Virus record (IMG/VR): IMGVR_UViG_3300037755_000635
Span: 1-32,554 of that record
Strand: one strand, 5' to 3'
Origin: a virus
Taxonomy: Duplodnaviria; Caudoviricetes
Length of the DNA: 32,554 nucleotides
Shown here: positions 26,214-31,457 of the stretch, one piece after another
Layout of the letters: each line of letters opens with the position of its first letter
Numbering within the stretch: position 1 is the stretch's first letter
The notes under the pieces: generated by a model
What the model saw: the letters and a program-made list of their open reading frames with translations, nothing else
Databases searched by the model: none
What the model was told of the DNA's origin: nothing
Position numbers and translations under genes: made by a program

Positions 26214-26423
26214 TCATTCTTCTCTCGTCGCCATTGTTCTCTGCACTCGATTATTCGCATCTTCCACGAACGCCGCGTGCTCGACCGCTTTCCTGATCCA
26301 ATCGCTCGCCGTCAGCCCCGCCTTGACCGCAAGCAGCTCGATCCGGGATTTGTCATTTTCCGACAATCTCACCGTCACATACGCAACTTTCCGCCGGTCT
26401 TTGCTGATTTTCTTGCGTGTCAT
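26214..26423 (-). CDS. Ribbon-helix-helix (Arc/CopG/MobC-like) DNA-binding protein
   Basis: YVTVRLSENDKSRIELLAVKAGLTASDWIRKAV is a typical RHH pattern. Confidence 0.8.
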   Translation of the reverse strand: MTRKKISKDRRKVAYVTVRLSENDKSRIELLAVKAGLTASDWIRKAVEHAAFVEDANNRVQRTMATREE

Positions 26424-26857
26424 TGAACGATCGTTGCTTTTTGTGTCGGGGCCGGCGGTTAGGCGTCGTTAATCTTGCGAAAGAATGTGTAACACGTAGC
26501 TTGGCGCGGTGTCGAGAGAAAGCGTGTTACGCATAAAAGAAAAATTTCGCTGGGGAGCTGGAAAAGGAGCGCCCCGTTCCAATCCCGCGAAACCCAACGG
26601 CACGTCTCGGTTCGTTTCAAACGCGCCAATCCAAAACGCAACGGTTCGTTTCCGTGGCGCTGGGCGTTGCGGTGCGGATCGTATTTATTCAGTACACGGA
26701 CGAGCGTCACGCAGCGCGGCGCACGAGGTGCGCTTTTGGCAGCAGGCTGGCAACATGAAGAACAACGAGACGCGGCGTTTCTTTTCTCATAACACCCGTT
26801 ATGCGATGTAGATTAAGAGACGTAACGTGTGTTATATTCCGGGGACACAGCGTCAGA
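26424..26857. other. Long non-coding region with short direct and inverted repeats; candidate replication origin or operator region
   Basis: About 430 nt with no credible ORF; GTAACACG/CGTGTTAC inverted pair, CGGTTCGTTTC twice, two TAAC-N4-GTTA palindromes; next to the DUF1376 gene. Confidence 0.4.
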
Positions 26858-27298
26858 TTAGTCAGATAATGCAACGCTTATCTTCGATACGCAGCGTTTC
26901 GAATCATCGAGGGCGGCAGGAACTAGCGGCACTCCCGCCATTCCCGGATCGCTCATCTTCCCAGCTGACTTTGCCGCAGTCATTGCCCTACGCCGCGCGT
27001 TGAGCCGATGAGCATGTGCGGAATGCGCCGCGATCCGTGCGGCGTGCTTGGCATAAATGGCCGCAAGTTTAGGCTCAAGCGAATGCCAAGCCGTCATGAC
27101 TCGTTTGTTGATGTCGCACCATTGACGGCCATGCACGCTGGCCAGGCGGGATAATTGAGCATTGGAAGCCGGCAGAGGCGCGGCTTTTCCCCGCCAAAAG
27201 GCTTCCGACAGGGTGAGAAGCGCCCCAATCTCAAGCGTGGTGAGGCGATGCTCCGCAGAGGCATCTAGAATGGGACTGGCGGGAAAGTCGGCTTTCAT
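26858..27298 (-). CDS. DUF1376/YdaU-like protein (putative replication initiator domain)
   Basis: HRLTTLEIGALLTLSEAFW...PLPASNAQLSRLA...W matches the DUF1376 pattern; start ATG 27298. Confidence 0.7.
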   Translation of the reverse strand: MKADFPASPILDASAEHRLTTLEIGALLTLSEAFWRGKAAPLPASNAQLSRLASVHGRQWCDINKRVMTAWHSLEPKLAAIYAKHAARIAAHSAHAHRLNARRRAMTAAKSAGKMSDPGMAGVPLVPAALDDSKRCVSKISVALSD

Positions 27299-27304
27299 GC
27301 CGCA

Positions 27305-27333
27305 AGCATAGCACATGCTATAGTGTGACGGAA
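27305..27333 (-). promoter_or_regulatory. Leftward extended -10 promoter (leaderless) with overlapping palindrome
   Basis: TTCCGT-N17-TATGCT with TG extension, 6 nt before ATG 27298; ATAGCA-CA-TGCTAT palindrome at 27308-27321. Confidence 0.5.
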
Positions 27334-28164: not shown

Positions 28165-28641
28165 ATGCAATTCATCTATGACGACGGCGGCCGCGCTACG
28201 GCCGGATTCAAAGGTGACGCGGGCGACTGCGTTACACGCGCCGTGGCGATTGCTGCGCAGCTTCCCTATGCGGAGGTCTACGCAGCGTTGTCGAAAGGCT
28301 GCAAGACGCAGCGATTGACGAAGCGTTCGCGTGCCAAATCGTCGGCGCGTGATGGCGTGAACACGCGGCGGAAATGGTTCCGCGACTACATGGCGTCGAT
28401 CGGTTTGGTTTGGACCCCGACCATGCTGATCGGCCAAGGCTGCAAGGTGCATCTGCACGACGACGAGTTGCCCAATGGGCGCCTGATCGTCGCCGTCAGC
28501 AAGCACTATACGGCCGTCATCGACGGCGTGATCCGTGACACGCACGATCCGCAGCGCAACGACGTCTGGGTCGATGCCGACGGCGTGCAGCGCATCATGC
28601 GCCGTTGCGTGTACGGCTATTGGCGACAGGTGACGCAATGA
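28165..28641 (+). CDS. Conserved phage protein with possible Cys-His-Asp (papain-like) triad
   Basis: GDCVTRAVAIA...HYTAVIDGVIRDTHD...VYGYW; GGGAGG RBS preceded by a 7-bp GCGA-loop hairpin (28130-28147). Confidence 0.75.
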   Translation: MQFIYDDGGRATAGFKGDAGDCVTRAVAIAAQLPYAEVYAALSKGCKTQRLTKRSRAKSSARDGVNTRRKWFRDYMASIGLVWTPTMLIGQGCKVHLHDDELPNGRLIVAVSKHYTAVIDGVIRDTHDPQRNDVWVDADGVQRIMRRCVYGYWRQVTQ

Positions 28642-28844
28642 TGAACTATCAGCAAGCAATGCGCTGGATCAACGCGGCCGACACGCCGCCATTGCTCAAG
28701 GCCGCGGCGAGAATCAAGCAAGCCGCGTTGCTGCGGGAGTATGCCGGCGTGATCGCCATGCAGGATGAGCCGGTCAGGCACGCGGCGCTCGTGGTGGTGT
28801 TTGTGGATGCGTGCAGCAACGTTGCGATTGCGCATGCGGCGTGA
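28638..28844 (+). CDS. Hypothetical protein
   Basis: 68 aa; ATGA coupling to the upstream gene. Confidence 0.6.
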   Translation: MMNYQQAMRWINAADTPPLLKAAARIKQAALLREYAGVIAMQDEPVRHAALVVVFVDACSNVAIAHAA

Positions 28845-28874
28845 CGTGCGTGACGCGGCGTTGAATGGAGAATC

Positions 28875-28902
28875 CCCCGAGGGAGCGCAAGCGACCGAGG
28901 GG
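28875..28902 (+). other. Hairpin with two tandem GA mismatches and GCAA tetraloop
   Basis: CCCC-GA-GG-GA-GC-GCAA-GC-GA-CC-GA-GGGG. Confidence 0.65.
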
Positions 28903-28944
28903 CGGTGAAGGGCGATTGTCGCCTGACGAGGGAGAACTGGTGTT

Positions 28945-29139
28945 ATGGCAGATAGAATAGTCTCAAGCAGCGAAGCGCACGACATGTCCGAGGGATGGAT
29001 GAAGGACAATCCGGAGCTGGCGGGAAAGGCATTATTGCAATTCTTCCGCGAGCATCCGCCCGAAGAATGGAATTTGACGATCCGACGCGCGTTCATGCCG
29101 GGCATGTTTCTGACGCTTAGCGCGGTGCGTAAAAAGTAA
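28945..29139 (+). CDS. Hypothetical protein
   Basis: 64 aa; GGGAGAA RBS. Confidence 0.65.
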   Translation: MADRIVSSSEAHDMSEGWMKDNPELAGKALLQFFREHPPEEWNLTIRRAFMPGMFLTLSAVRKK

Positions 29140-29208
29140 CAGGCCGAAACGCGCGTTAGGAGAATTTTAACGCGCGTCTGCGAGTGTGGCTCGCACTGAC
29201 GAGGCTGT
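29139..29208 (+). ncRNA. Hammerhead ribozyme, type II
   Basis: ACAGGCC-GAAA-CGCGCGTTA(loop)TAACGCGCG-TC^-TGCGAG(TGTGG)CTCGCA-CTGACGA-GGCTGT. All core nucleotides are present; stem III 10 bp, stem I 6 bp, stem II closed by the ends; predicted cut after C29178. Confidence 0.93.
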
Positions 29209-29235
29209 CGGAGTGCAATAGGGAGAATGAAGACA

Positions 29236-29568
29236 ATGTCTAATGATTTTGTACCAGCTAAAAAAGGCGACGTCGTGGCAATTCGCGTAAGGGCCGCGAA
29301 TCACGATGCAGCGCGCCCCGAATGGTGGCTTCTTGCGTGGGTGGAACGTTCTTCGCGCGCAGGAAAAGTGCGCGATGTGCGTCTTGCCGGGCAATACGGC
29401 ACATTGCCTGCCTCAGCCATCGGGCAGGTTTATGCTATTGGAAATTCAGAGAAGCAGCGACTTGCGCGCAAGCTTGCGCAAGGGATGAAATATCCCGGCG
29501 TGACGTTCGACACGGATACGGAGCTCAAAGACGCGATTATGAATGCGGACGGCGGCGCGGCGGATTGA
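29236..29568 (+). CDS. Hypothetical protein downstream of the ribozyme
   Basis: 110 aa from ATG 29236 (best spacing to GGGAG; alternative start 29227). Confidence 0.7.
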   Translation: MSNDFVPAKKGDVVAIRVRAANHDAARPEWWLLAWVERSSRAGKVRDVRLAGQYGTLPASAIGQVYAIGNSEKQRLARKLAQGMKYPGVTFDTDTELKDAIMNADGGAAD

Positions 29569-29571
29569 CCA

Positions 29572-29622
29572 CAGCTAGCGCGCACCGCGAACGATGCGCG
29601 TCATGCTGCGATCATGTGCAGC
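29572..29622 (+). repeat. Intergenic two-state RNA element, copy 3
   Basis: CAGC-TA-GCGCGCACCG-CGAA-CGATGCGCGT-CAT-GCTGCG-ATCATG-TGCAGC, then TTGAAGGGAGAA. Confidence 0.75.
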
Positions 29623-29644
29623 GATTGAAGGGAGAACTATTCCA

Positions 29645-29950
29645 ATGAGTGAACCACTGACAGACGTGATATTTCGCGTTTGGTGCAAGGATGGCGACGT
29701 AATCGCGTTGTTTCCGGGTATCGCTGGGGATTACAGCGCGGGAACGTGCGACAGCTTTCAACACATTGGCCAGCATGGCGCGGCCAGTCTCAATTTAATG
29801 CGCGCACTCACGCGCCCGGCCTTGCCGCGTGAATTCGCGGATTTGAAGCGCGAACTGGAATCGGCGCCTTACAAATATCGCTTGCGCATCATCAAGCGCA
29901 CAACGCGGCGGCACTTCAAAGAGCGTCAAGCGCAATTACAGCGTGCCTAG
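29645..29950 (+). CDS. Conserved phage early protein
   Basis: 101 aa; VIFRVW...VIALFP...SFQHIGQH...TRPA...LKRELES pattern; GAAGGGAGAA RBS. Confidence 0.75.
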   Translation: MSEPLTDVIFRVWCKDGDVIALFPGIAGDYSAGTCDSFQHIGQHGAASLNLMRALTRPALPREFADLKRELESAPYKYRLRIIKRTTRRHFKERQAQLQRA

Positions 29951-30000
29951 CGCATCGGGCGTGGTCCGCCGCGCCCCTTGCGCTGTGCATGTCGCGCGGC
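29948..30000 (+). repeat. Intergenic two-state RNA element, copy 4
   Basis: TAGCGCA-TC-GGGCGTGG-TCCG-CCGCGCCC-CT-TGCGCTGTGC-ATGTC-GCGCGGC, then TTGAAGGGAGAA. Confidence 0.75.
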
Positions 30001-30021
30001 AATTGAAGGGAGAATAACGCA

Positions 30022-30372
30022 ATGCCACAACTGAACAACCCCACGCGCGCCCATTTGCGCGTGGTCGCCAACAACGCCGCGATCGCCAAGCCGCGCGACT
30101 ATCGCGGCGAACCGGACTTCACCCGGGAGTATTTTATTCGCGCGCTCGAAGGCCGCGCGGATATGGACCTCTACAGCGGCCGGACGCTGATTAGCGCGTT
30201 CGTGCTGGGTGAAACGGACTATGCCCGGCATGAAGCGTTGCGCAGTGCGTATGCGCTGGCTGTGTGGGAGGATGCCGACGGCGCCGTGTTCCATTGCACG
30301 ATGGATCGCGCGGCGTATGGCGCGTGGGTGAGCAAGGCGTGTGACGCGCTTGACGACGAAGAAGACGAGTAG
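30022..30372 (+). CDS. Hypothetical protein
   Basis: 116 aa with acidic tail; GAAGGGAGAA RBS. Confidence 0.7.
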   Translation: MPQLNNPTRAHLRVVANNAAIAKPRDYRGEPDFTREYFIRALEGRADMDLYSGRTLISAFVLGETDYARHEALRSAYALAVWEDADGAVFHCTMDRAAYGAWVSKACDALDDEEDE

Positions 30373-30373
30373 G

Positions 30374-30430
30374 ACCATTGCGCTAGGGCGCATCGTTCGC
30401 GGTGCGCCCGTCGCAGCGGTTTTGAGCTGC
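30374..30430 (+). repeat. Intergenic two-state RNA element, copy 5 (covaried)
   Basis: ACCATTGCG-CTA-GGGCGCATCG-TTCG-CGGTGCGCCC-GT-CGCAGC-GGTTTTGA-GCTGC. Confidence 0.75.
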
Positions 30431-30454
30431 ATGTGGAGAAAGGGAGAACTGACT

Positions 30455-31018
30455 ATGACGACGAAGACGACGAAAGCGCCGCGTGAGGAAATCACGGAGC
30501 GCGATTGCGACGAGCTGGTGCGGCGTGAGGTGATGTGCTGCGTGAGTGGGATTGTGAGCGTGCTTGCCGGCGGATATGGATTTGTTACATCGCAAGCCAA
30601 ACGTCACGGCTTGGTCGACGGCGGCAATGAACTGGCGGCGTTGTGTGAACAAGCCATGGAACTCGCCGCGCCGGTCGACGACTGGGAAGAAGCGGCGATT
30701 CAGGCTGGGTGGCGCGATAGCGGCACGGTTGAATTTTCTCATGCCGAAACCGGCCGCGTGGAAATCGGCGACAACTGGCGCGAGCTGTGCGAATCCGAAG
30801 GCATCGAACCCTATCAGCGCGAAGTCTTCGAGCACTGGGCCGTTTCGTTCTGGCTCGCCGATGCCCTCGAAGCGGAAGGCGAAAAGGTGGACCGCGATTT
30901 CCAGGGCCTCAATGTCTGGGCGCGCACCACGACCGGCTAGGGGATCGCGTCGGACGGTGTGATTCGCCGGGTGATCGAAGCGGCGCGGACGCGCGTCGCG
31001 GCATTCGCGGCGAACTGA
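30455..31018 (+). CDS. Conserved acidic phage protein with an in-frame TAG at 30938-30940 (nonsense allele or readthrough)
   Basis: ATG 30455; EVFEHWAVSFWLA...VWARTTTG*GIASDGVIRRVI...; the frame continues 25 codons to TGA 31016-31018, just before the next intergenic element. Confidence 0.7.
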
Positions 31019-31022
31019 CGAA

Positions 31023-31087
31023 CGAGCATAGCCTAAAGACGCATCCCGCACGTGCGTGGTGCGTCTCCGGCTGCGCTCGGACGTGGT
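31023..31087 (+). repeat. Intergenic two-state RNA element, copy 6
   Basis: CGAGCATAGCC-TAA-AGACGCATC-...-GGTGCGTCT-CC-GGCTGCG-CTCGGA-CGTGGT, then AAAGGGAGAA. Confidence 0.7.
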
Positions 31088-31110
31088 ATAGCAAAGGGAG
31101 AACAAAGCAA

Positions 31111-31440
31111 ATGGGAACGATCACGCGCCATACGCACCGGGACGTCATCAAAGACGTTCGGGACCGTTGGCAATATCAATATCGGATGTGGGGCTCTGAC
31201 GAAGCGGTGCAAGTCACGAATGGCCCGCGCAAGATCGGTACCATCCGCCGCGCGTTGAGGGCACTCGACCTTGAAACTTGTTCGGCCGAAGACGTCGATG
31301 CCGCGATCGGGCGCCCCGGGTGGGTCGCGCTTACATGCGACGTCTGCAACAAGGATCAAGACGAGATTTTGCACATCGAATCCGAAAGCGAGCGCGCGGT
31401 CGATGTGTGTTTCGAGTGCGCTCGCACGGCAATGAAATAG
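31111..31440 (+). CDS. Hypothetical Zn-finger protein
   Basis: 109 aa; CDVC...CFEC; AAAGGGAGAA RBS. Confidence 0.75.
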   Translation: MGTITRHTHRDVIKDVRDRWQYQYRMWGSDEAVQVTNGPRKIGTIRRALRALDLETCSAEDVDAAIGRPGWVALTCDVCNKDQDEILHIESESERAVDVCFECARTAMK

Positions 31441-31457
31441 CAAAGGGAGAACAGCAA

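Follow-up and report, generated by a model that had tools for sequence, protein, structure and literature searches.

A type II hammerhead ribozyme motif between two small genes of an uncultured tailed phage, with a covarying tail helix predicted to compete with its core

A complete type II hammerhead ribozyme was identified at 29141-29206 on the plus strand of the window, a stretch of 32,554 nucleotides that is the whole contig of an uncultured tailed phage, where it is located between the stop codon of one small gene and the ribosome-binding site of the next. The motif belongs to a large family of phage hammerheads and likely self-cleaves a shared polycistronic transcript after C29178. It runs into a tail that can pair with the core, and this tail helix, which covaries in relatives, likely locks the cleaved product or dampens cleavage. 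The features of the region are listed below.

28945-29139 (+): upstream ORF of 64 amino acids, preceded by GGGAGAA at 28930, with 70 open codons up to the stop
29141 (+): unpaired A 5' of stem II, equivalent of the loop-II A(L2.4), predicted partner U29185
29142-29145 (+): 5' strand of stem II, pairing with 29203-29206 in 4 bp, three G-C and one G.U (the outer pair)
29146-29149 (+): core G12-A13-A14-A15.1 (GAAA), placed by sequence and Rfam alignment
29149-29177 (+): stem III hairpin, 29149-58 with 29168-77, 10 Watson-Crick pairs
29176-29178 (+): GUC triplet, placed by sequence and Rfam alignment, predicted cut after C17 (C29178)
29179-29195 (+): stem I, 6 bp (29179-84 with 29190-95), with a UGUGG pentaloop whose U1.7 is 29185
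29196-29202 (+): core C3-U4-G5-A6-C7-G8-A9 (CUGACGA), G5 being G29198
29203-29206 (+): 3' strand of stem II, pairing with 29142-29145
29206-29211 (+): core-pairing tail, pairing with 29196-29201 in 6 bp, two of them G.U, around the loop 29202-05
29220-29227 (+): Shine-Dalgarno-like AGGGAGAA, common to six spacers of the gene run, each time before an ATG
29236-29568 (+): downstream ORF of 110 amino acids, given no function by family searches

The order GAAA, stem III, UC, stem I, CUGACGA, with stems I and III closed by loops and stem II open, is the type II permutation. Three helices surround the core, with 6 bp in stem I, 4 bp in stem II and 10 to 13 bp in stem III, the last being extended from 10 to 13 pairs by two G.U pairs and one A-U pair. 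A29149 and U29177 form the A15.1-U16.1 pair and GUC is a triplet of the NUH class. An earlier note on this DNA had described a full core, the GUC triplet and three paired stems, all of which are present, and its assignment to type II agrees with the permutation, the core and the R1 score given below; the predicted cleavage site after C29178 and core position G5 had also been placed correctly. The motif stands but the span of 29139-29208 proposed for it does not, as stem II has 4 bp and follows the unpaired A29141, and the upstream stop from which the ribozyme was said to start is adjacent but ends (TAA) at 29139, two bases before the contact A. The bulged 6-bp stem II from 29139 that this span implies was rejected, as relatives favour a 4-bp stem II with an unpaired A before it; the 4-bp register was preferred because it places U29185 and A29141 at the U1.7 and A positions of the relatives.

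The bare core sequence pattern matched once in the window against 1.96 matches expected, which was not significant. A descriptor of all three stems matched once, with one loose and no equally strict match in 150 dinucleotide shuffles of the window, and the evidence is therefore carried by the stems, since the sequence-only pattern did no better than chance. A search with the Rfam Hammerhead_II model (RF02276), the check put forward in the earlier note, gave a match over the full model length at 32.3 bits (E 0.001 for 5.5 kb), which was 4.7 bits under the gathering cut-off of 37. No family reached threshold in a gathering-level Rfam scan of the whole window, bearing out the expectation that standard annotation would miss the element. 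A covariance model (R1) was built from 42 viral phage relatives, the unselected-set part of 68 equal-length references, with the window excluded. R1 scored the motif at 53.6 bits (E 1e-11, a rough value) and the next match in the window at 15.1 bits. Both R1 and the descriptor yielded a single match in the 32,554 nucleotides, and neither a second hammerhead nor a clustered arrangement was found in this contig, which may be an incomplete genome.

Type II hammerheads of bacteria and prophages were reported in 2011 by Perreault et al. (PMC3088659), who covered the class, its context and its cleavage in vitro and in vivo. In the excerpted text of that paper, prophage hammerheads border single genes or short runs of genes and are suggested to process transcripts into gene-length mRNAs. 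Three tandem prophage sets cut 2-kb polycistronic RNAs in vitro, one was active in E. coli, and activity was recorded for 14 of the 18 consensus-conforming hammerheads assayed. The window motif resembles these ribozymes and RF02276 in having stems I and III closed and stem II open, a full core, a location between phage genes and a proposed role in polycistronic processing. It differs from the motifs of Perreault et al., as they appear in these excerpts, in its 4-bp stem II with a 5' A, its core-complementary tail and its occurrence as a single copy rather than in a cluster. A pseudoknot between loop I and the 3' tail, which is a majority feature of the type II motifs in that paper, was not found in the window, where the longest Watson-Crick run was 3 and at least 4 pairs were required.

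An initial search of viral contigs by pattern gave at least 123 loci, and two forms separated among 118 distinct sequences (the window included) among the matches listed. Within these, a pseudoknot of at least 4 loop I-tail pairs was present in 52 of 68 sequences that had no fourth stem II pair and in 6 of 50 that had one, the latter form having a short stem I loop. The window belongs to this fourth-pair, short-loop form, which we defined by a 6-bp stem I, a 5-nt loop starting with U, a 4-bp stem II and an A just 5' of stem II, all of which it has. Scanning 4 of the 64 parts of the viral collection for the short-loop form with no tail condition gave 136 loci, from which about 2,500 viral stretches with the pattern are estimated for the collection. 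Standard annotation may undercount this form because the score of the present member lies below the Rfam cut-off. A stem filter retained 137 of the 161 distinct matches and removed 24, and matches too near a locus end were skipped. In the stems of these relatives 233 of 672 cells were changed on both sides, a figure that is partly circular as the sequences had been pre-filtered for their stems.

Stem II had 4 pairs in 122 of the 137 relatives, the base just 5' of it was A in 130, and loop I began with U in 130 and ended with G in 92. The first loop I base and the base 5' of stem II were U and A in 129 relatives, swapped to A and U in 5 and otherwise in 3. From this co-occurrence U29185 and A29141 are predicted to form the equivalent of the U1.7-A(L2.4) trans-Hoogsteen pair of the sTRSV and Schistosoma hammerheads (O'Rourke et al. 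2015, via excerpts of PMC11875169 and PMC9217987). Fig. S5 of Perreault et al., as far as it is covered by the excerpted text (PMC3088659), scores a related U..A contact for all three hammerhead types. The excerpted descriptions of sTRSV and Schistosoma and the window share an unpaired U seven bases past the cut, a 6-bp stem I and an A beside the 11.x strand of a 4-bp stem II. The A of the window is the 5' flanking base of an open stem II, in contrast to the last base of a GNRA loop in those ribozymes, and in the phage short-loop form it is often part of the upstream stop codon. The active fold of the window motif likely does without the usual type II pseudoknot, with its 6-bp stem I and 4-bp stem II held together instead by this single predicted contact.

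The position between genes is shared by the relatives. An upstream frame of at least 40 codons stopped at -12 to +1 of the contact A in 111 of 135 relatives with enough flank (-2 in the window), and both a Shine-Dalgarno-like motif and a start codon came no more than 60 nt downstream of the ribozyme in 111 of 137 (median offset 25, window 32). The upstream stop ended one base past the contact A in 33 of 135 unselected relatives (L248-L383) and on it in 18 of 135; in these the stop codon itself supplies the contact A, often together with the outer stem II base.

The tail is a further feature absent from the earlier note, as were the loss of the pseudoknot and the U1.7/A contact. The minimum-energy fold of the window region is not the hammerhead but the tail hairpin 29196-201/29206-211, which cannot coexist with the active core because it uses C3, U4, G5, A6 and G8. 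Tail helices were scored as a 5-bp complement of CUGAY with at most one G.U, located no more than 12 nt past the core. Forty-one of the 137 unselected relatives had such a helix, compared with a mean of 4.4 (maximum 11) for shuffled tails and 2 for a control stretch further downstream. In 16 of the 137 relatives, including L276, L290, L292, L300, L318, L328, L333, L340 and L343, the competing stretch was the stem II 3' strand itself (offset 0, with a 3-nt loop), so that this competing helix can be formed in two ways.

Core position 7 and its tail partner were C-G in 13, U-A in 10, U.G in 2 and C.A in 1 of the unselected set. A tail-selected set in which both bases were free (116 of 132 passing) gave C-G 47, U-A 54, U.G 9 and C.A 1, and cellular genome contigs (40 of 58 passing) gave C-G 12, U-A 5, U.G 1 and C.A 0 at offsets above zero. 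The covariation was weaker at offset zero (C-G 6, U-A 9, U.G 5, C.A 2). In the pooled data 173 of the 304 motifs that passed had the tail, a proportion raised by inclusion of the selected sets, with U-A 77, C-G 74, U.G 19 and C.A 3; the offset of the window was the commonest, at 88 of 173. When one sequence was taken from each of 86 clusters at 70% identity, the least significant of 20 draws gave p 2e-9; both C-G and U-A were present in 4 of the 86 clusters. U.G made up 19 of 96 and C.A 3 of 77. This tolerance of U.G and near absence of C.A suggests selection on RNA pairing rather than copying of DNA. The literature searched, where an earlier mention is possible, yielded no account of phage hammerheads with a conserved core-pairing tail, and the excerpted texts of PMC13481778, PMC10085705 and PMC4033574 contain no mention of one.

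The minus strand of the contig encodes the terminase large subunit, the major head protein and virion proteins, and a run of small genes, nearly all without family matches, begins on the plus strand at about 27450. The ribozyme was said in the earlier note to lie between two early genes; the intergenic position among small genes holds, and the genes may be early to judge from their layout on the strand opposite the terminase and capsid module. A ribbon-helix-helix regulator-like gene (26214-27316, minus strand) diverges from the run, as does a weak DUF1376 match, and a weak cell wall hydrolase match is located at the contig end (32166-32552, plus strand). A promoter scan found a single site where 2.6 were expected. 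The ribozyme takes up the spacer that runs from the TAA at 29137-39 to the Shine-Dalgarno-like motif at 29220-27. The upstream ORF had no PHROG or Pfam match and neither had the downstream ORF, which among 15 candidates matched only itself and had atlas matches below 0.9.

No relative of the locus covering the ribozyme was found among viral contigs, proteins, metagenome matches or named phages, and none of the downstream gene in viral contigs or proteins. The upstream gene had four weak metagenome matches (41-52% over part of the protein), none with a hammerhead, and the two that were inspected both lay within unrelated sequence. Two relatives of the gene at 29645 had no R1 match nearby, and named phages had no DNA match to the ribozyme and terminase matches of at most 32% identity. 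A sediment-metagenome run, the possible source, contained a contig identical to the window over 28600-30500 and was the only run covering the ribozyme, three other sequencing runs having no cover there. The sequencing runs listed as carrying the sequence include no RNA dataset.

Other spacers of the gene run have structures of their own. A second or decayed hammerhead at 28845-28930 was rejected, as this stretch has no GAAA or stem III and no R1 match; 90 of 1000 shuffles resembled the ribozyme at least as well, and at least 8 of 751 background windows scored higher. At 28912-28936 a small hairpin is followed by CUGACGA running straight into the Shine-Dalgarno sequence of the upstream gene, which was not significant as half a hammerhead. 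The tip of stem III in the ribozyme (29159-29165) reads GGAGAAU, which is close to the phage Shine-Dalgarno motif, but no start codon is suitably spaced from it. Two 20-nt copies at 29580-29599 and 30388-30407, separated by 788 nt, make a perfect inverted repeat; both are hairpins within intergenic spacers, and the arrangement looks like the flipping of one of them. The three spacers at 29569-29628, 29951-30006 and 30373-30440 are mutually related, with a similarity reached in 0-1 of 500 shuffles for two of the pairs and in 34 of 500 for the remaining one. Long imperfect hairpins, none with an Rfam match, precede the common Shine-Dalgarno motif at 29940-29993 (z -2.6), 30370-30424 (z -2.2) and 31015-31093 (z -3.8). 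These spacer hairpins may be nuclease processing sites, presumably for an RNase III-type enzyme, in the slot that the hammerhead fills at 29141. A 31-nt direct repeat with 81% identity, at 31074-31104 and 31423-31453, ends in the Shine-Dalgarno motif before two successive genes.

The reading we favour, with somewhat better than even confidence, is that the ribozyme processes a polycistronic transcript by cutting it, after which the tail folds onto the CUGAC core. If this strand is transcribed, the hammerhead would cut after C29178 during transcription, and the tail would then release the two pieces and prevent their rejoining. The upstream product would end in the stem III hairpin, the downstream product would begin with stem I and then the tail helix, the fold predicted for the 3' product, and the downstream message would have a fixed 57-nt leader. 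As stem II is the open stem, both products would have a hairpin on the new end. The RiboJ ribozyme insulator (Lou et al. 2012) reportedly leaves, by self-cleavage, a fixed hairpin-capped 5' leader before the ribosome-binding site. The window motif would give the same kind of leader, and differs from that design in being natural, of type II and between genes, with a hairpin also left on the upstream product. Cleavage followed by locking is favoured over attenuation, decay and a dead copy because the tail helix replaces stem II, the sole helix joining the two pieces. The absence of the tail helix from 96 of the 137 relatives counts against the lock, and no special need for help with release is evident, since stem II was no stronger in tail-bearing than in other relatives (both medians -4.6 kcal/mol, p 0.9). 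Translation gated by cleavage was tried and rejected, the predicted cost of opening the ribosome-binding region being 4.8 versus 4.1 kcal/mol, a change of only 0.7. Any effect on message stability would have a host-dependent direction, since 5' hairpins can stabilise an RNA yet a 5'-OH admits RNase J1, as in glmS.

The same helix might instead be an attenuator or switch that holds most transcripts in the inactive hairpin so that only a fraction is cut, possibly set by the speed of transcription, a ribosome at the upstream stop or loading downstream; we regard this as possible but doubtful. In the energy model, predicted stem II pairing was 0.96 for a transcript ending at 29206, 0.27 at 29211 and 0.03-0.09 beyond 29216 as the tail was added, with an equilibrium probability of 0.013, and the median stem II probability was 0.04 in the 41 tail-bearing relatives versus 0.66 in the other 96. 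Transcription brings out the tail just 5 nt beyond the completed ribozyme, which would leave little time for cutting during synthesis unless tertiary contacts repay the difference; this and the low equilibrium value count against cutting followed by locking. Against attenuation, the active fold is predicted to lie only some 2.3 kcal/mol above the minimum, and the energy model leaves core and tertiary contacts out of account. In 111 of 135 relatives a stop codon directly adjoins the ribozyme, as a ribosome-set fraction would have it, but the helix is clear of the Shine-Dalgarno motif, start codons are further off when it is present (median 30 versus 23 nt) and no ligand or protein partner is evident. 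Precedent comes from viroid and satellite hammerheads, which are attenuated by alternative folds (excerpts of PMC1636495, citing Miller and Silver 1991). As presented there, they are similar in having core bases in an inactive helix and in the importance of co-transcriptional timing, while the phage form is a dedicated local hairpin of 5-6 bp that covaries with N7 and lies in an mRNA rather than a replicon. Attenuation can hold together with cutting and locking.

Two further explanations were judged improbable. Cleavage might turn the downstream genes down by exposing a 5'-OH piece to a 5' exonuclease, as for the glmS product degraded by RNase J1 (excerpts of PMC3997798); the 3' product however opens with two predicted hairpins, 5' hairpins are noted in the same excerpts to stabilise mRNA, and hammerhead clusters flanking single genes, as in the excerpts of PMC3088659, fit processing better. 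A marginally more remote suggestion is that the element is a neutral or dead remnant, namely a mobile spacer cassette that has lost its cutting activity in this phage and whose tail arose by inverted-repeat copying at the DNA level. It occurs once in the contig, the tail helix has two G.U pairs and stem II has one, the collections searched yielded no relatives of the locus that could show conservation, and 4 of 18 consensus hammerheads were inactive according to the excerpts of PMC3088659. The core, the two contact bases and the stems are nonetheless intact throughout, and the U.G and C.A counts mentioned above fit selection on RNA pairing.

The ribozyme is one more, intact-looking member of a large and common known class in a known setting, which is refined here by the short-loop form and by the covarying tail helix. 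According to the excerpts of a review (PMC6765202), what self-cleaving ribozymes do for bacteria and phages has yet to be defined, and the tail helix offers a handle for telling constitutive cutters with a product lock from tunable switches. It is conceivable, though we lean against it, that the roughly 3 in 10 short-loop phage type II hammerheads that carry an anti-core hairpin, the window included, are natural conformational switches whose cleavage responds to how fast transcription proceeds or to ribosomes at the adjoining stop and start. If so, the phage would tune the fraction of its polycistronic message that is cut at each gene boundary.
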